A stretch of DNA of 64,000 nucleotides from Takakia lepidozioides (Eukaryota > Plantae > Bryophyta): the NCBI GenBank assembly GCA_030704615.1, contig CM060732.1:29822001-29886000 (forward strand), read 5' to 3'. How positions within the stretch are numbered: the first letter of the stretch is position 1; every line of letters begins with the position of its first letter. Shown here one piece after another: positions 1,135-39,547 of the stretch. The notes beneath the pieces were generated by a model. That model was not told the DNA's origin. It searched no databases and saw only the letters and a list, made by a program, of their open reading frames with translations. The position numbers and the translations under genes are program-made.

Positions 1135-1424
1135 GGAGATGTGCACACAAGACTGCCAGGATGGCGTGCGGGGAAGCTCCCTGGTAGAAGGGGGTGCAGA
1201 GGATGGAATGAATGCGATGCCGATTTGTCGAGCGACGAAGCCTGATCCAAATCTAGGGAGCCAACTATCTCAAAAATCCACAGTCAGAGTGTAATGAACC
1301 TTGTCTCCGGAATGCGGCCCCTCGTCTTTGCGCAATAACTGCCAACGGATGCAGTCAGAAAGTGGGGGGCCGTCGGATGATGACGGCTGAAGGGATAAGC
1401 CGGCACCGTGCCGTCACATACTAC

Positions 1425-2450
1425 CCCCGAATGGAAATTCGGCACCCAACATCCAACAGAGGAAGCCCGCATGAAGTTGCCTCGGGCGCAGAGGCCGGAG
1501 TGTGTGCGACAGAGAACATCCCTGGATGGAGATTCGGCGCCGAAATTCCATCCGGTCCCCCCAAAGGGAGTCGTGTCGGGGGGTCAGGCCGAAACTGGAC
1601 GGCATAAAAACATCCCCAGATGGAAAAACGGCGCCGAATTTCCATCCGGGGCGATTCGGATGCAGTCGGGGAGGGGGGAGTGGCCTGCAGTTGGCTGTCA
1701 CATTTCAACCCCGGACGGAAATTCGGCAACGAATATCGAACAGGGGACGCCCGATGAAGTCGCCTGGGGCACAGAGGCCGCCAGTGTGCGACAAGAACAT
1801 CCCCTGGACGGACATTCGGCGCCGATTTCCATCCGGGCCCCCCAAGGAAGGGTTGTCGGGGGGTCAGAGCGAAAACTGGCCGACATAACCCTCCACAGAT
1901 GGGAAACGGCGCCGATTCAATTCGGGGCCGTTCCAAATGCAGTCGGGGAGGGGAAGGTCCGTAACCTTGGCAGTCATATTTCAACCCCCGGGACGGAAAT
2001 TCGGCACCGAATATCCACCAGAGCGGCGGATAGGCGGCACCTCTCCGACAAGACCATCCCCGATGAGATTCGGCGCCGAATTTCCATCCAGCAGGTAAGT
2101 GGAATCTCGATGATGGAGATTCGGCTGCCGAATTTCCATCCTGCAGGTTCGAATCCCCGAACGAATGGAGATTCGGCGCCGAATTTCCATCCTGCAGGTA
2201 ATTCGAATCCCGGACGAATGGAAATTCGGCGCCGAATTCCTCCAGCAGGTAGTGGAACCTCGGATGGATGGAGATTCGGCGCCGAATTTCCATCCTGCGG
2301 TAATTTCGAATCCCTTCTGGATGGAGATTCGGCGCCGGATTTCCATCATGCAGGTAATGCGAATCACGGATGAATGGAAATTCGGCGCCGAATTCCATCC
2401 AGCAGGTAAGTCGGATCAGTGCCGTATGGATATTCGGCGCCCGGATTTCC
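1425..2450. repeat. Array of a ~30-bp palindrome (GGATGGAAATTCGGCGCCGAATTTCCATCC consensus), ~94-bp then ~52-bp spacing
   Basis: Copies near 1430, 1523, 1620, 1713, 1805, 1898, 1991 form a ~283-bp trimer higher-order repeat. Further copies near 2062, 2112, 2165, 2218, 2266, 2320, 2374, 2425. Confidence 0.9.
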
Positions 2451-2870
2451 ACTCGCCATTTATTCTGAGCGAGGATTACCTTCGTGCAGGTATTCCCATA
2501 TAAATTACCTTCGGGCAGGTAATTCGCATATAAGAATTACCTTCGTGCAGGTAATTTCCAGAGACAATTACCTTCCTGCAGGTAATTCCAATCGATTTTA
2601 TTCCTCGTCCAGAATTACATGCACAAAGGTAATTCTCATCTGGAAATTACCTGATGAAGGTAATTGATATATGCGAATTACCTGCACGAAGTAATTCTTA
2701 TATGGGAATTACCTGCACGAAGGTAATTCCTCGCTCAGAAATAAATGGCGAATGGAAATTCGCGCCGAATATCCATATGGCACCTCCGACTTACCTGCTG
2801 GATGGAATTCGGCGCCGAATTTCCATTCATCCACGATTCGAATTACCTGCAGGATGAAATTCGGCGCCGA
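2330..2870. repeat. Large imperfect inverted repeat built from AATTACCT..AGGTAATT units; orientation switch of the array
   Basis: 2400-2500 (agcaggtaagtcgga...ctcgccatttattctgagcgagg) is the reverse complement of 2700-2800 (cctcgctcagaaataaatggcg...tccgacttacctgct). Centre ~2600. Confidence 0.8.
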
Positions 2871-3980
2871 ATTACCTGCTTCAGGGAAATTTGGCGCACC
2901 GACCTCCGCGCGATGGAAATCGGCGCCGGATTCCATCCGCGCGCATCCGAATTACTGCGGAAGGAAATTGGCGCACCGACCTCCTGCGCGGATGGAAATT
3001 CGGCGCCGGATTTCCATCCGCGCGCATCCGAATTACCTGCTGGAAGGAAATTTGGCGCACCGACCTACCTGCGCGGATGGAAATTCGGCGCCGGATTTCC
3101 ATCCGCGCGCATCCGAATTACCTGCTTGAAGGAAATTTGGCGCACCGCCCTACCTGCGCGGATGGAAATCGGCGCCGGATTTCCATCCGCGCGCTTCCGA
3201 ATTACCTGCTTGAAGGAAATTTGGCGCACCGACCTACCCCTGCGCGGATGGAAATTCGGCGCGGGATTTCCATCCGCGCGCATCCGAATTACCTGCTTGA
3301 AGGAAATTTGGCGCACCGCGCTACCTGCGCGGATGGAAATTCGGCGCCGGATTTCCATCCGCGCCCTCCGAATTACCTGCTTGAAGGAAATTTGGCGCAC
3401 CGCGCTACCTGCGCGGATGGAAATTCGGCGCCGGATTTCCATCCGCGCCGCCTCCGAATTACCTGCTTGAAGGAAATTTGGCGCACCGCCCTCTGCGCGG
3501 ATGGAAATTCGGCGCCGGATTTCCATCCGCGCGCCTCCGAATTACCTGCTTGAAGGAAATTGGGCGCACCGCCCTCCTGCGCGGATGGAAATTCGGCGCC
3601 GGATTTCCATCCGCGCGCCTCCGAATTACCTGCTTGAAGGAAATTTGGCGCACCGCCCTCCTGCGCGGATGGAAATCGGCGCCGGATTTCCATCCGCGCG
3701 CATCCGAATTACCTGCTTGAAGGAAATTTGGCGCACCGCCCTACCTGCGCGGATGGAAATTCGGCGCCGGATTTCCATCCGCGCGCCTCCGAATACCTGC
3801 TTGAAGGAAATTTGGCGCACCGCCCTCCTGCGCGGATGGAAATTCGGCGCCGGATTTCCATCCGCGCGCATCCGAATTACCTGCTTGAAGGAAATTTGGC
3901 GCACCGCCCTACCTGCGCGGATGGAAATTCGGCGCCGGATTTCCATCCGCGCGCTTCCGAATTACCTGCTGGAAGGAAAT
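2870..3980. repeat. Homogeneous ~85-bp tandem repeat, ~13 copies, each with a 38-bp near-perfect palindrome
   Basis: Unit gcgcggatggaaattcggcgccggatttccatccgcgc-gcatccgaattacctgcttgaaggaaatttggcgcaccgccctacct is read directly from the sequence. Confidence 0.95.
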
Positions 3981-5004
3981 TCCGGGACTGTTTTCGTCGA
4001 TTTTCTTCCGACATGGAGGGCTTCATCCGACATTTAATTGCGCAGTTGGGCAATAAATGTCGACGGCCGTCGGTTATTAATTCGGGCTGGCGACGCATGG
4101 CTTCCTGGACACGTACCCTAAATCTCATGCTATACTTGGCTTAACATGGTATTCCAGGCATGTACCCCAAAAAGGAGATCTTTTTGGCTGGGACTTATGC
4201 CGCCTGAAGGGCGTGGCTCTCCTGAGAGAGACCTCAGATCCAGACGCGGCGGAAGTTGAAAGCTCTGTACTACGGACGACGGCCAATCTCTCGCATGGCC
4301 AAACTGAAGCTCCAGCAGGAGATTCCAGTGTCTTGCTCACAACCTGCGCCAACTGAAGCCGAGTACTCTCAGGCAAGCCATTTCTGCTTTCGGTTTGTTC
4401 GATTTCTTTTTGCTTTCGCTTCGTTACCTCGCTTTGTTTCTGCATCTTCATCCTGGCTTTGCTGTATGAGTGAACTTTAGATAGTTGACTGAACCTTAGA
4501 TTGTTTGCAATGCGTGTGCAAATCCGGCAGCTCTGGAGAAGGCTGCTTGTGCATGTCATTCTTAGGCAATGGTTGCATTTGTTTTCATTGTTGTTGCATG
4601 GCTCTCCATACTTCCTAAACTTGTTATGTTTTCATTTTTGCTACATGATTGCTGCTATGGTGGTTGCGCTGTGCTTTTTGCACCGCTGTTGGTGTTCACG
4701 ATTTTTGTCAATCACAGAGTGACGACGAGCCCGGCACGCTGGTGGTATCATCGACAGCTCCAACTCATCGCATGTTTGAATCGCCCAACTTGGGGCGAGA
4801 GGGCAAACTTAAATCTTTTGTTGGTGGACGGGAGGACTTTGCAACGAGATTACGATAGAGTAGGCATTGGGGAGGTTGGTGCAGGCGGCATGGCAGGTGA
4901 AGGGCGTGAGGACATGAGGACAGCAGATCCGGCAATGGAGGTTGTTCATGCACATGCAGTAGGGCCCGCCCGCCCACGAAAAGAAAAAGAAGAAAGCTAA
5001 GCAC

Positions 5005-8000
5005 ATGCAATCCCCGGCGAGAGAGCAGTCACGGGCTGCGGAGGGGGGAGTGAGCAGTGCGCGCGAGGGTGTCAGTTCGCCTCAATCAAAGGTGGTCGTC
5101 CTGGAGGGCTCCCCTGTTGCTAGCCCTAGTAAGAAAACAGAAAGCCGTGAGAGGGCAAAAGAGAGGGCAAAAGAACAGACGAGACAGAATGCTAGCAAGG
5201 AGGAAAGACAAAAGGCAGCTGAAGAGGCCAGGGGTGCCCAAATGACAGATGCCAATGTAAGCGAGGGACACACAGAGACGGTGGATCCCTACAAGACACC
5301 ACAGAGAGGCAGTAGCACACCGGTTAGACCATCGCGGGCAAGTGCAGCCCCCGCAATTACCCATACGGTGGAGAGTGGAGGAGAGGAAAGAACACCTGAA
5401 AGAGCACCGATTGTGCAAGTTCGAGGTGAAGCCAGGGAGAGGGCAGTAGAGACGACGAGAGTGCTGGAGGTGGTTTCGCAGGTGGCTGACCCTGTTGAGG
5501 AGGACGACATGGATGTTTCTGACCAGGATGACATTCTCCCGGACATCCCCAGGCCCCAAACCCGGAGCATACAGGCTGGATTTGGCGGTCTTGGTGGGCT
5601 GCCGGAAAACCCCTCTGCAGCAGACGTCATGTCTGAGGCGGATATGAAGTTGGCCGCTGCCAAGATGTTGGAGGCAACCCACAGCAACATTGGCAGGGTG
5701 CTGGGGGCATGGTGTACCCGGCCAAGCTTCGAATTCCCCTTTGCCGCTTGGTGTCATTTGCAGGTGGTGAGACCTGCCCTCCCAGGCGATATCGACAAGC
5801 TGAAATTCTCTTTCCGGGATGGATATCGAATGGGGTCTGCCGCCTTTTACGTTTCCATTGAGAACGACCACGGAGCTTCCCGTGCCCACACTTCCGATGA
5901 GGTGGACAAATGGGGTCCCCATTGGCAAACGCGAAATGAGGAGTTCGAGAGATCGATTGCTAGTGATCCTCTTTTCCAGCACATGTCCGGTAAGATGTTC
6001 TACGTGTGGGACGGCAATCATCGCCTCCTGGCATGGATGGAGCACATTGCCCAAGCCCACCCCAACGATCTCGATTGGCATTTCGCCGTCGATTGTGTTG
6101 TGCTGAAGGTTGCGGGGCCCAAAGATCGCAGTCTTCTCAAAGCTGCAATGGCCGACATCAACTCGTAAGCTACAACCCCTCTCGCTTTTGGACTTTGAAT
6201 TTGGAAGTCATTTCATTGCGAATCCTCATATATGATGAAAATTCCCATTTCAGTATTGTTTGATGGAAATGTGGCACTGCAGGGTGACTGAGAATGCCTT
6301 CATTGCCACCAACTTGTCCCATATGCTCTTCCGAGTGAAGGATGTCGGGAAGCAGGGGGTGCAGAGTTTGCCAATTCCCTCAGTGCCGACCTCCTGCGCA
6401 AGTCGGAGGCAAAGGCAGACAGAACCTGGTATAGCTGAGCGTCGACGCCATGGTGGACTACATATTTCGGGTAAAGCTCCTGCAGTTTTGTTGAGCTAAT
6501 TTGTCTCTCCTCCCCCAATAGAAGAAATTGTGTTGAGCAGGATCTCTAATCTTATGTGCGCCTTTTCGACAGACGAAAATACAGCAGGATTTGGCACATG
6601 TGCGGAGGTTCTACATGGAGTCAGAGGAGAAGAATCCAACCCTCCCGGAACTCGAATCGTATGTCAAAGCTGCGGAGGTGAGGGCCCGCATAAAGTACAA
6701 GTCGCGGATGGTAAAGTACGTGGCCATAGCTGATCCCGCCCTTGGTGCCGACTTTCTGGTGGAGGTGGGAAAGCACTACTCTCGCGCTCTGAAGCCCACG
6801 ATGACATTGGAGAAGCTCCATCGTCTAGCCACATCCTGTGTGGATGCAACAGAAAAGGTGATACATTCTTAACCAAATTGTGGTGGCAACAACTCCTTTT
6901 TGTGGTGTTTGGCGCTTACGAATATGCTGGGTGGTTGGACAGACCCGGTGGCTCCAAATCTGGAATGGTTCCCAAAGTACCAGGGACATGTGGAGCTTCC
7001 CCAAACCGGACAAACTCTCTGACCCCACATTCGACATGTGGATGAACCGCATGACATGGTGGTTTCAGGTACTTCCCCACGCTTCGTTTGGGGCTTCTAC
7101 TCTAGTAGGGGGTGGATTCATTGTATTTTTTGAGGAAAGCGATCTGATGGACAATCGCCACAGGTGACGACGAATGCGCAAGAGCAGCTGGACACACAAG
7201 CACATCAGTTCAAGATGGAGATATCTCCTGCAGCAGAGAGCCTACGTGACTATGTGACGAGGTACTTTCTGCTCTACAAAACCAACCTATTCTTTCGGGA
7301 GATAGCAGATGCTCGCCGGAGCCACGAGTTCACCGACCAGCCGAACGCGGACAAAGCAGCAATGCGCCTTCTGTACAGGTACATACGCGCTGCCTTTCTT
7401 TCAAGTCCTGGCATTTCAGGATGTTAGAGGCCTAAGTGGTGTTAGGGAAAATGGCGCCGAATTTCCAGTCAGGGCTCCGAAAATGGCAAAGTCCCTAGAC
7501 TGGCTGGCCCGGAACTGGAAATTCGGCGCCATTTTCCAGTTCCAGGCCCTATTGCCGTTCAGGGACTTAGCCATTTTCGGGCTAAGTCCCTAGTGTGGCT
7601 GGCCCGGAACTGGAAATTCGGCGCCGTTTTCCAGTTCTAGGCCCTATTGCCGTCCAGGGACTTAGCCATTTTCGGGCTAAGTCCCTAGACTGGCTGGCCC
7701 TGAAGTGGAAATTCGGCGCCATATTCCAGTTCCAGGCCCTATTGCCGTCCAGGGACTTAGCCATTTTCGGTCTAAGTCCCTAGGGTGGCTGGCCCGGAAC
7801 TGGAAATTCGGCGCCGTTTTCCAGTTCTAGGCCCTATTGCCGTCCAGGGACTTAGCCATTTTCGGGCTAAGTCCCTAGACTGGCTGGCCCTGAAGTGGAA
7901 ATTCGGCGCCATATTCCAGTTCCAGGCCCTATTGCCGTCCAGGGACTCAGCCATTTTCGGTCTAAGTCCCTAGGGTGGCTGGCCCGGAACTGGAAATTCG

Positions 8001-10623
8001 GCGCCGTTTTCCAGTTCTAGGCCCTATTGCCGTCCAGGGACTTAGCCATTTTTGGTCTAAGTCCCTAGGGTGGCTGGCCCGGAAGTGGAAATTCGGCGCC
8101 GTTTTCCAGTTCCAGGCCCTATTGCCGTCCAGGGACTTAGCCATTTTCGGGCTAAGTCCCTAGACTGGGTGGCCCTGAAGTGGAAATTCGGCGCCATATT
8201 CCAGTTGTAGGCCCTATTGCCGTTCAGGGACTTAGCCATTTTCGGACCTCATTGGGTTTTTCATGAATGCAGGTACTGTAAGTTCTCGCTTTTGGAGAAA
8301 GGTCATCTGTCTTTCGAGCCACCATTCTTCCTGGCATGGAGGAACCCTGGGGCTGACTCCATGTACACTGACGATATTGTGAAGGAGTGGCATCTGGAAC
8401 ATTTGCGTGATTGCCCTTGGTATGTGGACCTTCCGCCCGGCTCGCTCGACCCATCCGAGTTTCAATTGAAGCTGGATGCTGAATTCCGACGAAACCGGGC
8501 TCCGCTGCCTCCGTTGGGTGCAAAAGAGGCAAAAGCGCTTGCGAACTCCAGGAAAGCGGCAGAGCTTGCTCAGGCAGGAATTCAGGAGAAATTGCATGAG
8601 AAGAGTAAAGGTCAAAGGAAAAGGACAAGGAAACAGGTGACTGCAGTAACACCCAAAAAGAAGAAAACCATCGGGGCATCGGAGGAGGCGCAGGAGGGGA
8701 CCCAAGAGAGTGACTCCGACGCCGATTTTGTTCAAGGTCCTGCGACTGCTGTTGCTCCTACCCAGTCACCGGTCGTCCGGGTTCCCAAGTCAGTTCGGAG
8801 TGGGACTGGCTCTGCCAAGAAGTTGGCATTTGAGGGCGAGCCTACACGGCGGTATTCGGCGGTGACGTTTACGCACAGGCCAAAGCTAGAACCTCCAACC
8901 ATCATCCAATGCGTCAATGAGAGCTTCCTTGACGCTCTCGCTGCCAGGGCGAAGAAGGTGGCACACAACAAGTCTCTGGCGGAGCAGAAGGGGAAAGCCA
9001 AGAAGAGGGCTGCCGGTACAGAGCCTAAAGACACCCCTGGTTTTGAAGCCATGATGGAATTCTTCACGGCTGTGAGCACGAATTGCAAGAGCACTCGGGG
9101 GGGGGTTGAGGTGGAGAGAGCTTGCGACATGATTCTCCTCGACATTCCAGATGGGGAGCTGCTGGAGGGCCTGGATGGTGTGCCCACCTGGAACAGGTTT
9201 ACTGAGGACTACTGGAAAGCCGGGTTTGGGCTGGCGGGGATGCTTCTGGATGACGGTGGATGTGTGGTTGTCCTTGCCACGAGAGGGAAGACCACAGAGA
9301 ATGCGGTGGCAAGGTGGACACCGAAAAGTGTCACCCCGGTCCTCCTCAGAAAATGGTTCTGCATCAGTACGCAGGGGTTGCGAACAGAGGGCCAAAGTGT
9401 AAGTTATCAATCTATTGCATTCACTTCATATTGTGGTGTATGTTAAGTAGACCCTGGAATTGATCCCTTCTTTGTTGGATGTGCAGACATTGGTGTTTGA
9501 GGCATATTGCTTTGTGAAGAGAGGGTCTACGTTCAAATTCCGCAACGACGGTCGTCTTGTTGATGCCGCTGTGGACCCTGTAACCTACGATGTCCTCTAC
9601 AACTATGTGCCCCACTCTAGTATGCCGAAGGACACAAAGACAGGCAAACCGTGGCGGTACAGCCGGACCCGAAGCCCTGCTTTCATCCAAACCCTCATGG
9701 AGACGTGCTCGGATGTCCAAGGGCGGATTCTGGACCTCACATGCGGCACGGGTAAGCCTTCACGTGCTCAGTTTGTCCCCTGGCCCCATTGCAATTGCAT
9801 GCCGCAAGCTATTAACCGCCCGCTTTGTTCCTCAGGTGCTTCAATGTGGGCAGGGACGTTGTCCGACAGGCATGTGTTCGCCTTCGAGCCAGATACTGCC
9901 CTCCACAACTCGGAACTTGCAGCGGCTGAACGTCTGCCGAAAGAGGAAGAGGCATCCTCGGAGGATGAGGAAAAATCCGAGAAGGAGCAGGGGGAGGAAG
10001 TTGGGATCGAGGCCGAGGAGCCCCCGGTTTACGAGTGAGTGGTTGCATTGTAAGTTGCCTCCAGATTTTGTGAGGCACCTCCCTCCGCTCTCTTATTTCA
10101 TTGAAAACCCTTTCTGGTTGTGCTGGTATTGACATTCTTCAAGTGGATTTGTTCTTACTGTAGGATGCCAAGTACTGCCGGAGGGACGTCTACACCGGAG
10201 TTCATGGGCAGGAGGAACGTGCCTTTTTTTGCCAGGGGAGATTTCATGCCTAGTCCAGAAAGGGAGTACATCCTGCCTACTTATGCTGCCCGGCTTGCTT
10301 CGGTGTCCATTAGGAGGTGTTCCGAACGTAGTCGTGTACAGCAGATTTTAGACGAGGCAAGCCTCAAGAAAATGAAGATGAGGGAGGAGGCAGCAGCTAT
10401 TAGAGCCCGTCGGGCTCGTAGATTTGTGTTGGATTCTGCTGAGGAAAGTGGGGGAGAAGACGCAGAAGATTCCCAGGAGGTGAGGTGGACAGTCCCCCAA
10501 GGAGAGGACGGGATTTTTGAGAGGCATAGTGGAACTGATGCATCACAGAGCTCGGAGGATGAGGGGGATGAGGGGGATGAGGAAGAAGGTGGGGCAAGTT
10601 CCTCGGAGGGTGTAGGAGAGTAG
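5005..10623 (+). CDS. Spliced gene: low-complexity N-terminus + ParB/Sulfiredoxin-like domain + helical region + beta-class N4C/N6A DNA methyltransferase-like domain + acidic tail
   Basis: Predicted exons 5005-6164, 6283-6470, 6573-6857, 6943-7068, 7164-7378, 8273-9398, 9487-9751, 9836-10034, 10164-10623. All introns are GT-AG with consistent phase; exon 2 needs two 1-nt corrections. Motifs: QVVRP..DIDKLKFSF..G / FYVWDGNHRLLAW (ParB-like), CDMILLDIPDG (motif IV-like), RSPAFIQTLMETCSDVQGRILDLTCGTGASMWAGTLSDRHVFAFEPD (motifs X-I-II). Additional frameshifted 5' coding sequence is likely in ~4010-5004. Confidence 0.75.
7440..8250. repeat. Intronic 95-bp tandem repeat (190-bp dimer), 8 copies plus one inverted partial copy
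   Basis: GGAAATTCGGCGCC(A/G)TTTTCC at ~7517, 7612, 7707, 7802, 7897, 7992, 8087, 8182. Each unit also holds the hairpin AGGGACTTAGCC-attttcg-GGCTAAGTCCCT. The array lies inside intron 7379-8272. Confidence 0.95.
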
Positions 10624-10849: not shown

Positions 10850-11095
10850 TAGCAGCCCCCCCTCAAATTGTAATTTGAGCCCTTGAAATTGTCAATTCCA
10901 ACCCCTCAAATTGCACTTCTAGCCCCTGAAATGACAATTCCCGCCCCTCAAATTGCAACTGTAGCCTGTGAAATGGCAATTGCTAGTGCAGCACCTGAGA
11001 TTGGCAATTGAAGCCCCTGGATTGGCAGTTTCAGCCCCTCAAATTGGCAATTCGAGCCCCATAAATGGCAATTTCAGCCCCTGAAATTGGCTATG
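10850..11095. repeat. Degenerate ~21-bp tandem repeat (gcccctcaaattggcaatt-like)
   Basis: About 11 imperfect copies are visible downstream of the ParB-MTase stop codon. Confidence 0.75.
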
Positions 11096-11099
11096 GGTG

Positions 11100-13740
11100 A
11101 ACCAATCATTCCCCTGCCAAATGATTTTGGATTCATTTGAAACTTTGCGAGTGTCTCGTACATGCCCTCTTAAAGTTACTGGACAAGTATGATGTCAATG
11201 TTAAATGGTTCAAAGGGTGAACCAACATTTCCCCTGTTGGATGATTCATGATTAATCGTTAACGATTGATCTCATATTACACTGGGACCTATCAGAGGGT
11301 ACATTGAACACACTGGCCAAGTCTCAAAGCCAACGAAAATCATTTGGATGGGCAACCATCCGTCGGCCCATTGAACGAATTTCGATTGATCTCATATTAC
11401 TCTGGGGCCTCTTCCATGGCACATTGAACATGCTGGCCAAGTCTCAAAGCGAACCAAAATCATCTCGATGGCCAACCATCCGTTGAGCCATTGAATGAAT
11501 TTCGATTGATTTGATATTAGTCCGGGACCTGTGAGAGGGTGTCTCAAACATACTGGAAAGTTTGGAAGCAAACAAAAATGATTTGGATGGGCAACCATCC
11601 GTTCACCCGTTGAATGTATTCCGCTGGATCTGCTATTGCTTTGGGACCTGTTGGACTGTGTTTCGCGTGCTCACGATTTTTTTTTCATTCGGTTTTTCAA
11701 TGGGGCGTGTAATGTAGCCATATGCAACGTGCGTGCCAAATTTGGGAGCGAACATAATTTATTTGGACCCAAAACCACAATTTCTTCCCTGTTTTGCACT
11801 CCAAACTTGATTTGTGTTCAACTTCATGCACTCTTCATAGAGAGTTATGCAATAATGAGCAAAGAGAACACTTTTTTTTGGGGAATTTTTTATTGGTCCA
11901 AATTTTGGCAGGGGAGTAGTAGTGGGATGCTGGAAGCCGTAGAACAAAATTGAGCCAAAAACAAAATCGATACGTGCCAGAAACCCCCAATGAAAGGCAG
12001 TGCAAACCTATTTATTGGCTTAAAATTAATTTAAATTCAATTACATTATGGAATGGCTTGGTGTCGATGGGGAGGCAAATGATTTATTCGTCTGTTGTGT
12101 CTCCGCACATGTGTCGCACACATGTTCAAGCACATGCGGGCAAAAGAGGGGCTTCAACCACATCCGTTCAATGGGTGCAATAGCCATGCACGCATTGCAG
12201 AATTTCTTTTTCGCAATGATAAAAAACCAGATGACAACTGAACGCCTCATTGGCCCATCGAACGAATTTCGATTGATCTCATATTACACTGGGACCTACC
12301 AGAGGGTACATTGAACACACTGGCCAAGTCTCAAAGCGAACGAAAATCATTTGGATGGGCAACCATCCGTCGGACCATTGAATGAATTTCGATTGATCTC
12401 ATATTACTCTGGGGCCTCTTCCATGGCACATTGAACATGCTGGCCAAGTCTCAAAGCGAACCAAAATCATCTCGATGGCCAACCATTCGTTGAGCCATCG
12501 AATGAATTTCGATTGATCTGATATTAGTCCGGGACCTGTGAGAGGGTGTCTCAAACGTACTGGCAAAGTTTGGAAGCAAACAAAAATGATTTGGATGGGC
12601 AACCATCCGTTCACCCGTTGAATGCACTCCAAACTTGATTTGTGTTCAACTTCATGCACTCTTCATAGAGAGTTCTGCAATAATGAGCGAAGAGAACACT
12701 TTTTTTTGGGGCATTTTTTATTGGTCCAAATTTTGGCGGGGGAGTAGTGGTGGGATGCTGGAAGCCGTATAACAAAATTGAGCCAAAAACAAATCGATAC
12801 GTGCCAGAAACCCCCAATGAAAGGCAGTGCAAACCTATTTATTGGCTTAAAATTAATTTAAATTCAATTACATTATGGAATGGCTTGGTGTCGATGGGGA
12901 GGCAAATGATCTATTTGTCTGTAGTGTTTCCGCACATGTGTCGCACACATGTTCAAGCACATGTGGGCAAAAGAGGGGCTTCAACCACATCCGTTCAATG
13001 GGTGCAATAGCCGTGCACGCATTGCAGGATTTCTTTTTCGCAATGAACAAAAACCAGATGACAACTGAACGCCTCATTGGCCCATCGAACGAATTTCGAT
13101 TGATCTCGTATTACACTGGGACCTATCAGAGGGTACATTGAACACACTGGCCAAGTCTCGAAATGAACGAAAATCATTTGGATGGGCAACCATCCGTCGG
13201 CCCATTGAACGAATTTCGATTGATCTCATATTACTCTGGGGCCTCTTCCATGGCACATTGAACAGGCTGGCCAAGTCTCAAAGCGAACCAAAATCATCTG
13301 GGGGCAAATGATTTATGCGTCTGTTCATTTATTTGTGATTAATCGTTAATGGTGACAAGGATAAACCAAAGGTTCATTGATAAAAAAAAATTTGAATGAT
13401 TTGAAATTTTGCCAGTATGTTCTACATGCCTCTTACATGGACCGGAGAAGTATGAGATCAATAAAAAATGGTTCACATGAGGAACCAATGGTTACTTGAT
13501 GTGCCGATTTCTGAATGCTTTCAAACTTTGCCATTGCATTGTACATGCCCTCTTAAAGGTACCGAACAAGTATGAGTTCGATTTAAAATATTGCAATGGG
13601 TGAACTAATGGTATCTTCATTCAGCAAATTTTTATTGTTTTGAAACTTTGCCAGTATATTGTTCATGCCGTCAAACAGGTACTGAACAAGTATGAGGTCA
13701 TTCAAAAATGGTTCAAAGGATGAACCTCGTATTTCTAAAA
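11100..13740. repeat. Composite repeat: ~119-bp subunits within a ~830-bp tandem duplication
   Basis: ttgatctcatattac(a/t)ctggg blocks at ~11265-11615, 12270-12620 and 13095-13300. 11796-12620 is duplicated from 12624. Diverged ~120-bp units occur at 11100-11260 and 13340-13740. Confidence 0.85.
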
Positions 13741-13823
13741 ATTACGTAGACTATACAGTGGGTTGCACATTTAAGTTTTCACAACCCAAGACCTTTGGCC
13801 TACTCCCTACGTTTGCAGCCTTT

Positions 13824-16375
13824 CTAGTCATCTTCATCTAGATTTATTACTTCGTTGTCGTCATCTCTAGATGTTGATGAAGATGCTCCGGGTGTAGAGG
13901 ACGTGCCTCCACCAGTACGGAGAGCTCGAGCCTGGGCTCGAGTGGTCAAAGAGGGACCCAGTGTTGTGTGGTCCACCTTTGCCATCATGCGTAGCGTTCT
14001 AGGCGAGTGCTGACTCTCTTCCACATTTGCGCTCTTGCTACGGCGGCATGCAATTTTTCAATTAAATCCGATATGTTTGGAAGTGGCAAGAACACCCCTG
14101 GAATAGGGGCAACTTGGTCACGTCATGTGTTCTGCTAATACTTTTCCACACTCGTGATGACAGCCTTGAAATTGTCCAACACCTCCTCCTGCTGGGGGTC
14201 TCTGCGCAACTCTGGAAGAAATGGCCTATCATCCCGACGAGGCACCCAGTACGTCTCATTCATATTCTCCCAACGGATGCTAGCGGCCTCCAACTCCCTC
14301 AGAAATAGGTCTCTCCCAATCAGTTCGCGATTGTATGGGTCATTTTCCGCTGGCACCCACGAATCCTCAGGTAGTTGGAAGAATCTTTGTCTGGTACAGC
14401 TCCAATGCCCTCCCAAGTTCCGGCAAAAAAGCTCCCTTTGGACTGGGTCTTGTATGCCTCTAGCACGCACGGTTATTTCCCAGTTGGATGTCACCCAAAA
14501 GGTCACCGGATCTTTAACCCTAGTTAACGTCTTCGCATCCAAGGCGTGCATCTCTCTTGGAGCATCCCATGTCATTGTCTCCCCCCAGTGCTGCCAAGTT
14601 AAAAAATCGTAAGGCGATACATCCAATGGCATGTTGTACCGGTTGTACTCGTATCCCATGGGCATATTGTCTTGCAACCCAAACAACTCGTAGAAACGTC
14701 GATGGATTGGTCCACGGCAGTCAGGGCATTGGCTGGCTCGCATGGCTGCCAATATGAGACATTTGGGATGGAACAAATGGCCACATGAACCAAGCATATA
14801 GCCTCCCTCCGGTCCATAAGGGTTTAGGCACATTGTGCACACCGTACCATCTGTTACCCATGACGCTGGATTGCTCTGTGGTATCCACGTCCGTTTATCC
14901 TCATTAATGAAGGATGACATCCTCGGCCTGGTGTCCCACTCCTCCTCTAATTCCAAATCCCAGTTTATGCTGTTATTGGTATCGGAAATTGTATGCACAC
15001 AGTGCTCAAACATGGCATGCACATCACCCCATGTGGTGAATCTAGTGTACTTCGACGTGAAAACATCACGCACATTGTCGTGCCTTTGTAAATTAGCATA
15101 GATGCTATCTACGCTTCGATTCGACAAACGTGCTGCACGTTGGAGGGAGGACAACGCTTCTTCTATCCGTGTTTCCCGCGATGCTAGATGGCCCGCCCAT
15201 GTCACCCAATTCCGCCAATTCCCCTTCAATCATGGCCACGATCGGATTTGCATGGCACTTGAGTACCGATATGCAACAGCCCTAGCTTGCTCGCGTTCCC
15301 CCACAAGCTACTCTAATTCCTGTTCTTGGGCCGATGTAATTTGCACGGCTGAACATTCCCCAGTTTCCACTATGGGGTCCTTCCATTTTCTTGCCCTTTC
15401 CGCCGCAAGTCTTTCTTCCTCAACCCTCGCCGGGTCTAGTTCAGACGTTTGCACTTCATTCCCATGCCCGATTGAGTCAACCCCGTCGATGACGCGGTCA
15501 ATGTTCATTGGTGACATATTCAAACGCGCCAATATGTCTTGCTTGTTGGTGATTGGCCTCGGGTCCTGAAGCACACCGCGTACGCTGTCGAGAGTCCCCA
15601 ACCCCATTCTTTCCAGCAACTTTGCTAGTTGCCACCGTTGCAAATGAACAATGTCCTGCAGGTCTTTGTTGTGCTGTTCATGTGTGGCCAATTGTTCCTC
15701 CAATGGAGAGCGTACCTCGCCCCCCTCCACCTCAGACGTTGAAGGCCCGGCTGCGGAGACTTGTTGTGGCGTATAATCTGGAGGTTGGTCTGCATTTCCT
15801 CCTTCTTCCACATCGTCGCTTCCATCCGCCTTTCCTCCTTCTTCCACCTCGTCGTTTCCATCGAACCGTATGATGTCCTGCCCCTGACGTATATACAAGT
15901 CTGGGATATCAGAGAACATGTATAGTCTAGTACGCTGTCTCGCAGTGGCAGTTTGCCAATCCACTGGTCGCAATAAAATCAACTTTGTGTACAACATAGC
16001 CGCAAATAAATACGGGACCTTGTTGTTGATAAGCGGTTGACCCCACAATGTTGTATGTACCTACTCTGCCCTGTGGCGGAAATGCGGGTTGACGCAGGAA
16101 TGCAAGCTAGCTTGATTTTGTTTGGTTTGTGGATCATGCCTATCTCTGGGCCACAAACGATTTATGTGACACCAGTCCACAAATTTCCTGCAGTCACCAA
16201 GCGACCACCGCTGCCCCAACTACCAAACTTCCCAACCTGGTTCCGCAAGAATGTTGGGGTCATTGTATATGTCCCAACAAAGTTCGTACCTGGCCCATTT
16301 TGGTTTTTTTTTAGGAGGTCCAGGTTCATTATCGTCATCCCTGGGATGACCTCCTCTGTCTTCCTCCTCCGCCAT
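13824..16375 (-). pseudogene. RING-H2 finger protein pseudogene (probable transposon cargo)
   Basis: A continuous frame from ATG 16375 (MAEEEDRGGHPRD...) passes three in-frame TAG stops into 15308-16048 and 14135-15229. It contains CTMCLNPYGPEGGYMLGSCGHLFHPKCLILAAMRASQCPDC (C3H2C3). Confidence 0.75.
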
Positions 16376-16799
16376 TTATGGCTTTGGCTTATCCCTACTC
16401 GACAGGTGTTTGCTAAGAAAAATGCTCTCCCAACCCTCCTAAATCGTACCTAATTCTACTTCCTAATGAATCCTCCCCAAGTACTAGAGGCACGTGTCAC
16501 TCCCTCGGCAGTTCTAAGTGATATGACGCAATGCGCAATGAAAAAAACGTGGGTGCTAGAGGAGGGCTTCCCGGGAGGTACTCAGCATCGATTTCGTAGG
16601 TTCCAACGGCCCAGAATACCCCCTACCCAACAAATAGCACCCCTCTCCACTTTGACTCAATGACAAGGAATGCAACATCCCATCGCCCACCAAGTCCTGG
16701 TGTGGAGAAAAGTGAGGGAGAGAATGGCCTCCGAGGCCTTATAAGCCCCCCCTCCACACTCGGGGCGCGCGCTGTCATTATGACTGCGCACGCTATTCA

Positions 16800-17670
16800 T
16801 AGCTGCGACCACCAACAGGGGTGGTCACATCTTTTTTTTCTTTTCTTTATTATGTGCGACCACCAGCAGGGGGTGGTCGCAGAATTTTTATTTTTTTTAA
16901 TAGGTGCGACCACCGGCAGGGGGGTGGTCGCAGATCTGTTTATGTTTTTTAATGGGTGCGACCACCAGCAGGGGGGTGGTCGCAGATTTGTTTATTTTTT
17001 TTAATGGGTGCGACCACCAGCAGGGGGGTGGTCGCAGATTTATTTAATCAGCAGGGGGGTGGTCACAGATTTATTTATTTATTTAATCAGCAGGGAGGTG
17101 GTTGCATATATATATATATATTTAATAGGCGCGACCACTAGCAGAGGGGTGGTCGCAGAAATTTTGTTTAAAACAAATAGGTGCGACCACCACCTGCTGG
17201 TGGTCGCACTATTTTCTTTTTCTTTAATAGATGCGACCACCAGCAGGGGGTGGTCGCATAATTTTCTGATTTTTTAATATCTACCAACAGTCAGTAGCTC
17301 AGTTGGTTAAGTGCACTGAGTGCGACCCGGACAATTCTGGGGTCAAATCTTGCTACTTGATGGGTGTGGTATGGTTCGTGTGTGATGCCCCATTCCTACG
17401 CCACTTGGCGCATAAATGAAAGAGGTTATTTTCTCCTCTCACTACTAAGGGGCCTGATTTGTGAGCTGTCGCTCCCAGGTGTTTTCCAAAATAAAATAAA
17501 ATAAAATCTGCGACCACCAGCAGGGGTAATCAGTAAATCAGTAAATAGGTGCGACTACCAGCAGGGGGGTGGTCGCAACATTTTTCTTTTATTTTAACAG
17601 TTGCGACGACCGCTACTGGTGGTCACACAATTGTTTTTTTTAAAATAGGTGAGACCACCAGGAGGTTGGT
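16800..17670. repeat. Array of palindrome TGCGACCACC-N(5-8)-GGTGGTCGCA with AT-rich spacers
   Basis: More than 12 copies; the array is the reverse complement of the one at 21350-22020. Confidence 0.9.
17283..17502 (+). mobile_element. tRNA-derived SINE-like insertion (~220 bp)
   Basis: A-box TAGCTCAGTTGG (17295-17306), B-box-like GGGTCAAATC (~17340-17349), (AAAAT)n tail and imperfect TSD aatatct/aaaatct. It interrupts one array unit. Confidence 0.65.
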
Positions 17671-18192
17671 CCCCTTGCACCTGTATGTATGTTTGGAGAG
17701 GCAGATGAAAAGCACATGTATCGACTCCCCATGGATTTGTGAAGGGGAAGATGAATGTTGGGAGCTGCACCTGGATTTTGTGGCTTTCGAAACCATAATA
17801 GGAAATCAACAATGTAAAGGTAATGACGAAACACAAACACACGCACCTTTCTTGGGTACATATATTCCACCATTTTTATTTCCGTACACGTATGCATGTA
17901 CCCAAACTGAAACATGGATATCCATGGAAACATACTACACATCATGTGATAGGTCACAGAAGTTATAGCTGTACCTAATTCCGTCTGGCACGACGACGAT
18001 GGTATGATCTCACGTCTAGTACAAAATCTTCGTCCCCACTCACTTCACCCCCGTTCCCATGATCAGTGCTAGAATTATGATCTCCATCTGTTCTTTCATT
18101 TCCAGAGGCAACTGGCCGTTGGACCTGTAGTCATCCTCGGAGTACGTTCAGTTGTCTCTCTGGTCGATTTCCACTCCTATCATGAATACCAT

Positions 18193-20929
18193 CTAGGGTA
18201 TCATGTTCACAGGTCGGTCACCAACAAAAGGTTGCACAATTCTCTGCCGTTTCTGGGCTTGTCCCGGATTTCGTGGTGGCCTTAGAGCAGGTCTCGTATG
18301 AGGAAGGCTACTCGCACGTACATCAGAGGGGCCGACATGAGAGGAAGGGGCATGAGATGGACCAGCAAGGGTCGAGAGAGCACGGTTCACATGCGGACGT
18401 CGTCGGGCCAAATGAAACGACAATGGCCGGTCGTCGTCATCCGATGGTTCGACTTGCAAACGTCCCGCAGCAGAAGAACCATCTCCCAGGATTGGAGTAG
18501 CGATGGAAGGAATTACATGAGGGGGAGAGAGACTAGATGGACCAGCATGGGATGGACCGGCTTGAGAAAGAGAAACATGAGATGGAGCGGGGTGAGATGA
18601 AGCACGGTTCACAGGGGCACGATGTCGGTGAAGGAATGACAACGGCCGGTTGTCATCATCCGACGATTCGACCTGCACATCTCCCGCAGTCCGTGGAACT
18701 CGTGGTGGGGGAGAGTTGACCTCAACTTTATTGTTGAGAGTGTGCTCCACTGGGGGAAGGGGGTCCACAATTGGGATGACACCATGTCGCAGTTCATCAA
18801 CAACAAGGTCATCGAAGGATGGATGCATTGCAGCATCATCGTCATTAAATTCATATGGGTCATGTGGAGGATTGCCTACATCATCGGACCCATCCCAACC
18901 GTCGGAGTCGGAGTCCCTCGCGGCGTCAGTGTCATCATTCCTGCTAGATTGGACCTCTGAGGGCAGATTCTTCAGACAACAGATTCTTCTCGTACCATGC
19001 AGATGCGTCACTTGCTCTCCTCTCTCGCAGTAACTTACAATTCGTGTAGACATAAACCAATTTGTCAGCCCTGGCAGGATTCAACCTGTTGCAAATCTTG
19101 TTGTGAACAAACGAGTAACTGCTCCAGTTCCGCTCACACGACGAGGCAGAGCACACTTGAGCAAGAATACGCTTTGCAATGGGAACTAATGTTCTTGCTC
19201 CAGCTCCAATCAGATCCCACCATTCATGTGGTAACATGTTTATTGCTTTTGGATCCGGCATGTCATGGAAATGATTCTGCCAATCCGAGAAGCACTGGAA
19301 CTCGGACAACGCTCGCTCTGCCATGTTCAAGGGTGCAAGTTGCATGATGACCCGTACAAGCCCGACTTTGGCATCCACATCGTCTCTCAAAGCCGTATTG
19401 TCCAGCAAGAATGGATTCAGCAAGGCCCCCACATAATGCAAGTCCGTGCGAACCATCCGTTTGCGGTCGTAAAATGCATCCTCGGTCCTTGCCGCCAAAT
19501 CATCGTCCATAGAAAATGAAGGATTGCACGTGCTTCTCAAGGTTTTCCAATATCAACCATGCTTTACCCATTATTGGTTGTTTTCCATCAAACTCCTGTA
19601 AAGCAATCAACACCGGCTTCACCATATACACAAAATTTGCACATTTCGCCCAGAAATCGTCGGAGCGAATGATTGCGCGGACCCTCCGACTTTTGCTCAA
19701 AGACTTGGACTTACAAGAGTCGCGTAAGGTGCCCACATACGCATCCCATTGAAGGTCAATAATCACCTGCTCCAGACCCGCCCTCACAGTCACCAGTCGA
19801 TCCACCATCAAAAAGTTTGTGGCAAAGCGGGTTTCAGCCGGGTTCCTAAGGCTGTATTTGGGTTCATGATTTCTAAACAATGCCAGAGGAATGTGATGTG
19901 TACGAATGAACGTCACAACCGACTTTGCCCTTTTTACTAGTTGTTTCATCCACGATTCTTTTCCCAATCCTCCAAAATGAGATCAAAGATATGAACAGCA
20001 CACCCTTGGTAATATAGATGGGGATATCGTACAATCAAAATATCGGCCATATTAACCATGTTAGATGCATTGTCCGTGCACACTTGGACAATTTTATCAG
20101 CTCCAATTTTATCGATGTAACTCGTCAACAACCCTGCTTGATAACGTGCATCTTTTCTCTCCCCGCTTGTGTCAACGGATCCCAAAAATTGTTTCCCCGC
20201 AGGACAGACCAGCATGACATTGAACAGTGGTCGATTAGTAACAAAACTCCAACCATCCGCACATATAGTGCTTCCATATTTCTGGAGAGAATCACCTGTC
20301 CTTTCATTCACCTTTTGGATGAGGTCAGACATAGCCTCTTCTAGCAATCTTGTGCGGAGATCGCGATAACTCGGAGGTATGTATGTGGACTTGGAATCGG
20401 ACGTGGCTTTGACAGCAGCCACAAATGCAGGAAGCCTCGAGACATTGACCGGAATATTGGCCTCGTAGAAAAATTGGGCCCACTTCTTATCCAGAGTCCT
20501 CCTGTGCGACAAATTTAAGCCTTCTTGCATTGATTGTTACCTCAATGGTCTGGTCCGTACAAGTGCTGGCGTACAATCGGGTGTTGCTCCTGACCCACCG
20601 GCTTCTCCACGAACAGTAGACGCCTCGCAAGAATCCCCCTGGGTATAATTCTGAGGAACAGTTTGATTCGAACCTGGAGTGTTTGGCTCAGAAGCCGCGG
20701 CCACATCAAGAGACGGTGGGATATTGCCTCCACATTGGGCAAAGTGGGCTTTCACTCGCATGGAGGCTTTTGGGCACAAACTAACCCCTGCATTCTTCCC
20801 ATTTCTGTAGCCGAGGTGATATAACATGCGATCTTTGCGACCCGCCAGCTTCAATGCACAAAGATTGCATTGAACACCGTCCTTTTTGTGCGGGTCTATG
20901 GTGAACCAATGGATCCACTCCTCCCTCAT
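18193..20929 (-). pseudogene. hAT transposase (BED-like Zn finger, DUF659, hAT dimerisation domain), disrupted
   Basis: VQCNLC..RMLYHL; KWAQFFYEANIP..PPSYRDLRTRLL; ICADGWS; VCTDNASNM; GCAVHIFDLILED; PAETRFATNF; SASSCERNWSSYSFVHNKICNRL. Split over five ORFs by a stop and frameshifts. Confidence 0.92.
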
Positions 20930-21349
20930 CCTCACACCCAAAACCCTAACCACAGACTTAAGGTTGAACGAAGAACACAAGTGTACTTGATAGATTTGTC
21001 AAGAGCAATAGAAGTTAGAACAGAATGTGATGGCCCAACACTACGGCATCAATCCAAGTGGATCAATGCACCATGTAGTATTGTGCTTTTCGACAATTTG
21101 CTGCAGTGGCTCTGGTGGAAGCCACAACAGCAAAAAGTCCGCACCCTCATTTTGGGCTTACACTCTTGCTCAAGGAATAAGGAACATTCACTCGCCACAA
21201 AAGTGTTTGCCACAAAAGAAGTAAGGGGCATTGGGACCACCTTATATACCCTCCAACCTCCAAACCTCACACGCTCGACGAATCAGATCCAATGTTGTGA
21301 CCGCTCCAGGTCGCACGAGGAAGTTGCATATTATTTTTAAAAAAAACTG

Positions 21350-22020
21350 CTGCGACCACCCTCATGTTGGTGGTCGCACCTACTAAAAAAAAAAAATGCT
21401 GCGACCACCCCCATACTCGTGGTCACAAAGATTATTTATTATTAAAAAAATAAAAAAATGATGCGACCACCCTCCTGCTGGTAGTCGCACCTATTAAAAA
21501 AACAGAAAATTTCTGCGACCACCCCCCTGCTGGTGGTCGCACCTATTAAACAGATAGAAAATTTCTTCGACAACCCCCATGGGGGTGGTCGCACCTATTA
21601 TATAAAAAAAAATGTTGCGACCACCCCCATGCTCATGGTCACAAAGAATATTTTTTAAGAACAAAAAAAAAAAAAAAAAAATCTGCGACCACCCCCTGCT
21701 GGTGGTCGCACCTATTAAAAAAACAGAAAAATATTGCGACCACCCCCATGCTGGTGGTCGCAGATATTAAAAAATAGAAAAATGTTGCGACCACCCCCCT
21801 GATGGTGGTCGCACCTATTACAAATAAAATTAAAATTGTGCGACCACCAGTAGCGGTGGTCGCAACTGTTTAAGAAAAGAAAAAAATGCGACCATCTCTG
21901 CTGGTGGTCGCATCTATTTAAAAAAAACAAAAAATGCTGCGACAACCCCTTTGCTGATGGTCGCAACTATTAAAAAATAAGATAAATTTTGCGACCACCA
22001 CCATTTGGAGGTCGCACCAA
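21350..22020. repeat. Subterminal palindrome array TGCGACCACC..GGTGGTCGCA with A-rich spacers
   Basis: About 15 copies upstream of the transposase, inverted relative to 16800-17670. Confidence 0.9.
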
Positions 22021-22177
22021 TTTAACAATAATGATTTAAAAATGACCTCAACTATTGGCGGATGAAGTAATTTATAAAACAATTCATTCACTTGCCAAGG
22101 TGTCGCTTGGAATACAACGTGTCCACCTACGTGGCATATTTTTCACCTAACTCATGTTTTACTGATTTTTCGTCAAA

Positions 22178-38006: not shown

Positions 38007-39547
38007 CTATCCAATGCAATGTGGACATAACCAATCCCCATTAGGAACCATCTCAAGAGGTGGAGTCAAACATCCCATATGCCAACCTCTAGAGCATCGA
38101 TCACACACCAGCATGGTGGCTGCCCCTCTAGCAGACCCACACAACATGCACCTCAAACTTGCAGGTACCACTGCCAGGTTTGGGTCAATCCTGCCATCGA
38201 CATTTGGAAGGTGACATGGCGCACAATTACGCACATGGTCCTTCCAAGTTATGCCATCCTGACCCTCCAAGATCAAGACGCCTGAGGGCAATACCTCTCG
38301 AACCCTCAAAATAACATGTCTTGCAGTCACATCCAGGTCGTAGGAGCAGTCTGCTGTAGATAAACATAGTCACTAGGGTTAAATCTCCGAACCCCAGGAC
38401 GATAGCCCCTACCACGTATGGTAGCATACCTCAACGTATCACGATGTTGTGCAATGGCAAGGTTCTCGAAAGCCATGGGCATGACTTTCTTGAACAACTC
38501 TGCACGCTGATCACATGTACGTGCCCACACGTCCAGATCGTCAAGGTTAAGAACTGTAGCAGCTTCTCTGCGAATGGATGTAGGCAAATCCGGCTCTCGG
38601 CCAAAGAGAAGAAAGTATGGTGAGAAGTAGGCAAGTGATGCTTGCTTGCTGAACCTATAGCCCATGGCTAACCAGGGTAACTGAAGGTCCCAATCTCCTA
38701 GGTGTCCCTTCTATAAGCCATACTTGCGCAAACCCCTCTTTATTGTCTGAACAACCCTCTCTGCCAAGCCATCGGCCTCAGGATGATCCCCAGAAGTGGT
38801 GCGGTGGTCTACCAAGGCCTGGTCACACAAAGCCTGAAACTCCCCCAATAACTCTCTCCCTGGGTCCGTGAGTACCTCATCTGGAGCACCGAATCGGCTA
38901 AGTACACAATCCAAGAATGCATACGCAGCTCCCTCACTAGCCTTATCAGGCAATGGAACCAACTCGATCCACTTGGAGAAGTGCTCCACCATCACCAACA
39001 CGTACTTGTTGTGGCGCATGGTCAGTGGCAACGGCCCTGCGAAGTCAAGACTCCACCTGTAGCCCAATCCCATGATCGCAAGAGGGTGCAATTGTGGAGT
39101 AGGGGCGTTGAATGAAGCACGCACCCTGTCACACACCATGCACCTAGCCACAAATTGTTGCACCTCTGTGTGCATACCACGCCACCAATACTGGCCCTGC
39201 AGTAGACTATGAGTGCGTCGCACCCCAAAATGCCCCAACTCCTCATGGGCATGCCGCACTAACCGTGCCTGCTGTGTTGGGTGAGGCACAATCCTCACTC
39301 GACCATCCTCCCACACTCGGAGCAGGTGTGTCCCCTCCCACTTGAACCTCTTGGCTTGTTGTAGGATCCGATCCCTCTCCTTGGCAGTCACAGTGGCTGT
39401 CGTGTCTCCAGTGCAGAGGTAGTCCAACACAGCTAAATCCTCATGTATATCTTTGGCGCCACCTTGCTCATTGCTGGCCTCAGGGTCCTCAGACACTTGA
39501 TCTACAGTCATCCCTGTTGCAGGTCCAACCTGGCCTTCCGCTGCCAA
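38007..39547 (-). pseudogene. Integrase with C-terminal PHD finger
   Basis: HEELGHFG..CMVC; WSLDFAGP; TDPG; ADGLAERVV; CMLCGSARGAATMLVCDRCSRGWHMGCLTPPLEMVPNGDWLCPHC (C4HC3). Confidence 0.92.

Follow-up and report, generated by a model that had tools for sequence, protein, structure and literature searches.

A ParB-methyltransferase fusion gene accompanied by palindrome arrays in Takakia lepidozioides: a candidate accessory gene of a plant DNA transposon

The closest described relatives in kind of the gene presented here are accessory genes of algal transposons. In the brown alga Ectocarpus, the element Sola1-1_Ec32 carries, opposite its transposase, a gene for a 1104-aa protein with a ParB-like and an N4C/N6A methyltransferase domain, for which self-binding was proposed (PMC12477816). 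In red algae, Plavaka elements carry these domains on separate genes, namely, PAG2 (PF01555 plus SET) and PAG3 (ParB plus 2OG oxygenase), with tandem inverted-repeat arrays beside the ParB gene, and the cassette moves between transposon superfamilies, including Mutator (bioRxiv 10.1101/2025.02.11.637652). In Arabidopsis, the Mutator-like VANDAL elements carry the accessory gene VANC, with tandem repeats of a subfamily-dependent motif upstream and in introns, and demethylation by VANC has been shown (PMC5735166). Here we describe a gene of the bryophyte Takakia lepidozioides in which a ParB/Srx-like domain precedes a beta-class amino-methyltransferase-like domain, located at 5005-10623 on the + strand of a stretch of 64,000 nucleotides (GenBank assembly GCA_030704615.1, contig CM060732.1, positions 29,822,001 to 29,886,000 of the forward strand), which as a whole we call the window. 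We give a probability of roughly 55% to the reading that it serves a plant DNA transposon as an accessory gene, with a protein that is predicted to bind the palindromes of this element and is likely to work in anti-silencing.

As precedents, the initial annotation of this locus had put forward two other eukaryotic enzymes, bdelloid N4CMT, which is reportedly a bacterial-type amino-methyltransferase in a eukaryote, and Marchantia DN4MT1, and the algal transposon genes turn out to be closer than either. The comparisons that follow hold for the available portions of the sources, and those with Ectocarpus and Marchantia are comparisons by description. With Sola1-1_Ec32, our gene shares a length of ~1100-1300 aa, both domains in one protein, the strand opposite to a (here putative) transposase and an apparent large DNA transposon as carrier; it differs in that the Ectocarpus element is a Sola-1 of a brown alga, whereas here the relatives are land plants and the host is probably Mutator-like, in that motif IV of the methyltransferase is eroded here, and in that the available portion of the Ectocarpus report names no binding site (PMC12477816). 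As in Plavaka, the domains seem to ride on a DNA transposon with arrays beside the ParB part, but in Plavaka the two genes are separate and PF01555 is detectable, while here they are fused, no SET or 2OG domain is seen, and a defined palindrome core is conserved across subfamilies (bioRxiv 10.1101/2025.02.11.637652). With VANDAL/VANC, our gene shares short motifs arrayed upstream and within introns and differing by subfamily, on what is probably also a Mutator-like element. In contrast to our palindromes, the VANC motifs are non-palindromic and wholly different between families, the effect on methylation shown for VANC is only predicted here, and homology between the two is not expected (PMC5735166). 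Prokaryotic PF01555 enzymes and phage ParB-methyltransferase loci share with our gene the motif order IV-X-I, the S-adenosylmethionine (SAM)-binding strand-loop and profile homology, and our gene differs from them by its departure from the (D/N/S)PP(Y/F/W) consensus, its eight introns and the ~550 aa between its domains (PMC7544214, PMC4738411). DN4MT1 is also a bacterial-type amino-methyltransferase in a eukaryote and was aligned with beta-class enzymes, but its motif reads TSPPY, it is a sperm enzyme of the host with demonstrated N4-methylcytosine (4mC), and the available text contains no "ParB" (bioRxiv 10.1101/2021.02.12.428880). Therefore, because of the Ectocarpus fusion, the separate Plavaka genes with their arrays and VANC as a functional model, this kind of gene is already known, and its novelty had been overrated; in a literature search that covered few subscription journals, we found nothing on land-plant members, on the eroded active site or on this palindrome.

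Judged from the relatives, the ParB-like and methyltransferase parts form one gene, as initially annotated. A search with the exon-1 domain gave 431 relatives at E<=0.001, of which the best 150 were examined, mostly single-exon gene calls; the named ones belong to the fern Adiantum nelumboides and the liverwort Riccia sorocarpa (9/20 matches looked up). From metagenomes, the best 80 of 200 loci were taken, which collapse to 51 non-redundant groups. One of these loci, L010, when spliced, is a single open frame of 983 aa with the domain order of the window gene, with 28% identity to it along 613 aa and 25% within the methyltransferase; it shares six of the seven window introns compared, in the same phase and with an offset of 0-3 columns. 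Additionally, the ParB-like part and motif IV occur together in 4 of 10 long annotated proteins (all from Adiantum), and in 11 distinct locus sets, motif-IV exons lie 3' of the ParB exon, most other loci being too short. Given this open frame, the shared introns, the annotated proteins and the locus sets, the fusion is old and conserved. All fetched loci except L010 contain stops or frameshifts. A word-indexed search with exon 1 found no match among longer proteins, a profile search with the C-half returned 10 products, all single-exon or intron-read-through and none full-length, and sequence searches of the PDB gave no meaningful match. Two odd relatives were also seen: L036 (227-1230) has an internal deletion through which exon 2 reads directly into the motif I exon, and P0164, an Adiantum annotation, has the methyltransferase N-half fused to the gag domain of a retrotransposon, probably by a nested insertion.

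The N-domain has, as modelled, the ParB/Srx fold that had been proposed for it. Its AlphaFold model has a predicted local distance difference test score of 92, and in a comparison with 48,161 chains, ranks 1-8 were all ParB/Srx-fold, with Z scores of 3.6-5.1, namely, Srx (Z 5.1, root-mean-square deviation 3.5, 74 aligned), KorB (Z 4.9, deviation 2.6, 78 aligned), Pnob8 ParB (Z 4.8), PadC (Z 4.7) and Spo0J (Z 3.8) among them. The ParB/Srx superfamily has a conserved G-x-H/R-R nucleotide-binding motif, which is also present here within WDGNHR (6007-6024, exon 1); GNH is invariant in 14 close members, and among 82 members the N is invariant and the G and H are each kept in at least 90%. A few of these 82 members also show weak DndB and DUF1015 matches. 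Pfam gave no match at E<=1 for any of the nine exon pieces of the window gene, scanned singly, and neither of the domains expected from the initial annotation (ParBc, N6_N4_Mtase) was detected in the window. Viral and prokaryotic contigs, searched with one peptide pattern each and thus providing weak evidence, yielded no relative of the ParB-like domain and no support for a direct acquisition from phage, and no ParA was present among the window open reading frames scanned. Between the two domains, which are separated by about 550 aa, lies a helical middle region of ~330 aa. A second model (P0101) is unreliable past the ParB part and gave no Foldseek match at E<=0.001.

The C-domain is, on profile evidence, a beta-class amino-methyltransferase homologue, and its motif order, IV, target recognition domain, X/I, agrees with the initial reading: the N-half aligns at the motif IV region and the C-half at X/I. 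Against 73 phage beta-class enzymes, hhalign gave P=80% (E 1.4e-5) for the N-half and P=97% (E 4e-11) for the C-half, with at most 3.3% in the reversed and 20 shuffled controls, and a profile of the same 73 enzymes scored 12 bits with the spliced window domain and 26 bits with L010, compared with <=3.6 bits for shuffles. Exon 7 of L010, in a scan of single exons, matched PF01555 at E 0.006 and 17 bits, below the gathering cut-off of 26.7; a tblastn of phages with the L010 C-half was weak (best E 0.05), with 19 of the 20 listed rows annotated as DNA methylases, and the N-half gave no useful match there. The Atlas features, at 0.89-0.90 to PF01555 clusters, serve as a lead only. On the SAM side the essentials are kept, since DLTCGTG aligns to DPFxGSG and FAFE to GxE, with T in place of the F of FxGxG. 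Motif IV is different. In the consensus (D/N/S)PP(Y/F/W), the fourth, aromatic residue stacks on the target base (PMC7544214), and M.TaqI and EcoP15I become less active when it is lost (as cited in PMC3036652). The family instead has D/N-[IVLF]-P-x, with D or N first in most relatives and, as the fourth residue, D in the window (DIPD, 9141-9152, within DMILLDIPD, 9126-9152, exon 6), E in L010 (DIPE) and S, G or I elsewhere (DVPS, NVPG, DFPI); an aromatic is found only in four relatives, three Adiantum proteins (DVPF twice, DLPF) and L054 (DIPW), and DIPY/DLPY occurs in 16 of the 73 phage enzymes. As a rule, members of the family have D-I-P-x with no aromatic, so catalysis is doubtful; the caution already expressed over the altered motif is supported, and nothing favours the writing of 4mC or of N6-methyladenine.

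The second line of evidence, on which the initial annotation was silent, as it was on the upstream gene and the frame breaks, consists of the following palindrome arrays:

1420-3990, no strand assigned: upstream arrays, ~53-bp and 84-bp tandem units and dispersed copies, in which a ~30-bp palindrome occurs 26 times.
7440-8250, no strand assigned: intron-5 array, 95-bp units in which variants of this palindromic site occur 9 times.

The palindrome, with the 12-bp core TTCGGCGCCGAA, is present in 35 copies within 1438-8187, 26 of them at 1438-3928 and 9 in intron 5, and 34 of the 37 GGCGCC hexamers of the window fall in this one palindromic site. In the upstream arrays, a 22-mer was matched 21 times (<=3 mismatches) compared with 0 in 100 shuffles, and at 17001-64000 there is no such site at <=1 mismatch. 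The intron-5 and upstream arrays have just a 23-nt stretch in common, their repeat units being otherwise unrelated. The same 12-bp core stands six times, four of them exact, upstream of the gene in L013, whose ParB domain is 42% identical. A pattern permitting C-to-T decay had 128 matches near the gene over all 80 loci, versus 7-22 in 20 shuffles, and in the 51 non-redundant loci, 34 sites have at least 5 of 7 flanking bases paired, versus 0.43 per shuffle, with five groups having at least two. In the relatives, the sites lie 0.4-1.4 kb upstream and in introns 5' of the methyltransferase exon, the intron varying. Arms vary by subclade and are still palindromic. In a tree of 35 rows, the core turns up in three deep branches, and it is conserved between proteins that are ~35-43% identical. 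The observed/expected CpG ratio is 1.1-1.5 in the upstream arrays and 0.65-0.66 in exons 1 and 6, an excess that could be explained by young arrays. Among 33 decayed sites, each core C/G is retained in 14-24, and because all these positions are lost at similar rates, no protected cytosine shows. Two further repeats deserve mention: every 84-bp unit (2890-3902) also contains a second sub-site, TTTGGCGC, where there are 13 matches to WTTSSCSS, which we take to be the plant E2F consensus, and L059 (6811-11618), which has no core palindrome, has a different 13-nt word four times, upstream of and within its gene.

The gene itself consists of nine exons, and all eight introns, with GT donors and AG acceptors, stand as initially annotated, as do WDGNHR in exon 1, DMILLDIP in exon 6 and motif X/I over exons 7-8:

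5005-6164, + strand: exon 1, low-complexity N-terminus followed by the ParB/Srx-like domain (~5700-6164); start uncertain.
6283-6470, + strand: exon 2, with two single-base deletions relative to X3 (6362, 6433) that break the window frame.
6573-6857, + strand: exon 3, helical middle region, with no fold assigned.
6943-7068, + strand: exon 4, with the join 7065>7161 in an X2 contig.
7164-7378, + strand: exon 5, with joins in X2 and X1 contigs.
8273-9398, + strand: exon 6, end of the middle region, charged linker, poly-G (~9096-9104) and N-half of the beta-class methyltransferase.
9487-9751, + strand: exon 7, the motif X region and, at 9733-9750, the beginning of motif I (DLTCGT), with joins in X1.
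9836-10034, + strand: exon 8, end of motif I, the FAFE acidic residue after the next strand, and an acidic tail.
10164-10623, + strand: exon 9, a short conserved stretch and then an acidic tail.
54711-55398, - strand: second-copy fragment, 690 nt, 90% identical, with the 3' half of exon 6, intron 6 and the start of exon 7.

Exon 2 matches the continuation of P0003/P0005, and exon 9 has tblastn matches 3' of the methyltransferase exons in L016, L032-34 and L050/53/55. The start at 5005 is uncertain because the frame is open from 4963, X3 and X4 have indels at 4838-5144, and L013 has an intron upstream of its ParB exon; further 5' exons, obscured by indels, may lie at 4098-5004 (+ strand), and an X1 contig covers 4245-4464. 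Since no sequencing run is on record as RNA, expression is suggested by spliced contigs from X1 and X2, two runs which we guess to be RNA, where intron 4 (X2) and introns 5, 6, 7 and 8 (X1) are spliced out, all GT..AG. Junctions of the kind hoped for in the initial annotation were seen for introns 4-8, while for introns 1-3 there is no splice join in the contigs of X1/X2. In X1, intron 8 uses a donor at 10050, 15 nt beyond the donor at 10035, both being in-frame; the distal one brings in an in-frame TGA by which exon 9 is lost, and the relatives use the equivalent of 10035.

As for a continuous coding gene, the claim stands only after correction. As read, the window gene model is not open, with its first stop at codon 503, 36 stops in total and the break in exon 2. 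Compared with X3, an unspliced run ~99% identical to the window and with a 1.9-kb contig here, there are four coding single-base indels (5702, 5757, 6362, 6433), the first two compensating each other, and when all four are applied to the window, a single frame of 1341 aa results and the family IPLCR motif is regained. The exon-2 frame breaks are thus most likely assembly indels, as far as these alignments indicate. In X3, the poly-G at 9096 is one G longer, which would break the frame before the methyltransferase, so each of the two sequences, taken alone, is interrupted. This tract before motif IV is G9 in the window (9096-9104), G10 in X3 and G16 in the second-copy fragment (~55205-55220), and it varies among copies, as the X3 tract is longer and X1 contigs end on both its sides; depending on its length, the methyltransferase half would or would not be read in frame. 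What had been called a second copy is, by its sequence, a dead fragment, frameshifted at the poly-G, lacking the ParB part and motif X/I, and cut at a long terminal repeat border.

That the gene is carried by a mobile element, as was proposed from the start, is supported by its 431 relatives, by the decay of nearly all loci and by a transposase-like neighbour in head-to-head orientation:

1-1220, - strand: 5' part of the head-to-head gene, frameshifted and extending beyond the window edge; a probable transposase, Mutator-like (MULE/hAT-type CxxH).

Homologues of this gene likewise lie upstream of the ParB gene and opposite to it in L034 (E 8e-8) and in L075/L076 (E 0.002-0.003), it is common to 2 of the 51 locus groups, and the L076 copy extends into FMxD...CxxH. 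In the part of the source available, CxxH is common to transposases of Mutator-like elements (MULEs) and of hAT elements (PMC5225508). We consider it probable, from these sequence features, that the head-to-head gene is a Mutator-like transposase.

Several facts weigh against the reading of an accessory gene with its own binding sites, beginning with the fact that binding, methylation and silencing are all predicted only. The head-to-head gene has no Pfam profile match, neither terminal repeats nor a target-site duplication came to light, with the left end lying outside the window, and because of the missing profile match and element ends, the Mutator-like identity is a matter of inference. 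At the protein level, the fold-comparison Z scores are modest (best 5.1), Foldseek with the N-domain model gave no match at E<=0.001, and the middle region, a helical model of low confidence, gave no helix-turn-helix match. No RNA contig bridges exon 1 (ParB) to exon 6 (methyltransferase); the X1 contig of exon 1 contains a stop, and the listed differences between X1 and the window, 3 silent and 8 changing in exon 1 and 4 and 11 in the linker, are near neutral. As for the palindromes, the C-to-T-tolerant pattern was picked after the window and L013 were seen, most of the 51 groups show no arrays (many being too short), paired-flank sites are missing from L059, L067, L045 and L076 despite the length of these loci, as they are from the gene body of the intact L010, and the intron-5 array is not CpG-rich (observed/expected 0.68).

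In the mechanism that we propose, a protein dimer would recognise the palindrome, with the core fixed and the arms subfamily-specific, a step in which we have some confidence; a dimer is proposed because beta-class enzymes function as dimers (PMC7544214). On balance, we also favour that the methyltransferase fold would bind SAM and DNA as a weak or non-catalytic occluder of the host 5-methylcytosine (5mC) enzymes, instead of working as an ordinary writer of 4mC or N6-methyladenine (6mA). Only tentatively do we suggest that the net effect would be VANC-like anti-silencing, and with still more reserve that the ParB-like domain might load at, or spread from, the arrays, perhaps in a nucleotide-gated manner. 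A repurposed ParB-parS system, in which the fusion would load at the palindrome, spread and shield the element from 5mC, either with non-canonical 4mC/6mA activity or as a pseudo-enzyme, is in our opinion not very likely. We find it unlikely, too, that the protein is an active amino-methyltransferase guided to the palindromes, which would write 4mC (or 6mA) on its own element and so block host 5mC and deamination. It is true that the SAM-side residues (D..xGTG/DxNxSTG and, past the next strand, an acidic residue) are retained, that motif IV still begins with D/N in most relatives, with the DVPF, DLPF and DIPW variants and the phage DIPY/DLPY enzymes as examples of an aromatic in this setting, that copy 1 compared with the fragment shows 9 silent and 12 changing differences in the methyltransferase half and 1 and 9 in the linker, and that modification of the own element was likewise proposed for Ectocarpus, in the available portion of that report (PMC12477816); however, the stacking aromatic is replaced in the window, in L010 and in most others, and the 33 decayed sites show no protected core cytosine.

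It is improbable, in turn, that the transposase or some host factor, for example E2F, is what binds the arrays, with the ParB-methyltransferase gene as cargo in another role. Transposons have reportedly amplified E2F sites, which is the basis of the E2F variant, and the 13 matches at the second sub-site of the 84-bp array would fit it; nevertheless, the palindrome core does not match the E2F consensus, and array A and intron 5 contain no match at all. For a transposase as the binder speak the neighbouring hAT element, which bears palindromic subterminal arrays of its own, and, from the available portions of two sources, the common occurrence of subterminal repeats in MULEs (PMC5225508) and the AtMu1 transposase, which binds and activates its element (bioRxiv 2026.08.24.746577). 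Against any such binder, our arrays also lie within introns of the accessory gene, in differing introns by subfamily, and their arms follow the ParB tree while staying palindromic. Finally, this copy might have died recently, or be chimeric through assembly, its frame breaks being real, which we think unlikely and which would bear on this copy and not on the family. The window frame breaks, the variable poly-G (G9/G10/G16), the near-neutral differences to X1 and the decay of most relatives are in line with it, but each of the four breaks is an indel of one base within a short run and is absent from the 1.9-kb X3 contig, agreement at 5702 or within 5718-6029 comes from X4, X1 and X2, and no in-frame stop is left after correction. 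Likewise, the unit lengths of the 84-bp array wobble between 80 and 87, as indel errors predict, and this therefore also counts against real frame breaks.

The window around the putative accessory gene is transposon-dense, with a hAT transposase (18944-20998), Gypsy elements and a RING gene, all of which were judged separate from it, no RING or hAT match being found in the 80 loci. Directly downstream of the gene, 10859-13726 contains arrays of 21/43-bp and 120-bp units and a duplication of 827-887 bp, with no palindrome core, and is possibly subterminal DNA. The RING-finger gene (13820-16380, - strand; PF13639, E 6e-7) converges on the ParB-methyltransferase gene and has one stop at ~15310. 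The hAT element (16790-22030) is broken, with DUF659 and a dimerisation domain and a second open reading frame at 18193-19080, and is flanked by inverted arrays of another palindromic unit of 50-52 bp. A Gypsy-type element (41417-42331 and 38007-38369, both - strand) carries a C5 cytosine methyltransferase (PF00145, E 1e-7) with a C-terminal PHD finger, which is the second transposon-carried methyltransferase in the window.

In summary, this family has probably been overlooked in fern and liverwort annotations, because Pfam does not see it. Self-binding or self-modification by ParB-methyltransferase accessory proteins has been a proposal only, made in algae, and here we have a near-intact, spliced, plant-type copy together with a candidate site; with the conserved core and subfamily-specific arms of this site, the idea of self-binding is therefore directly testable. 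If true, the protein could possibly be developed into a site-directed epigenome tool, and, for the plants that carry these elements, it would represent an anti-silencing route derived from prokaryotes, the second beside VANC, with a predicted target site.

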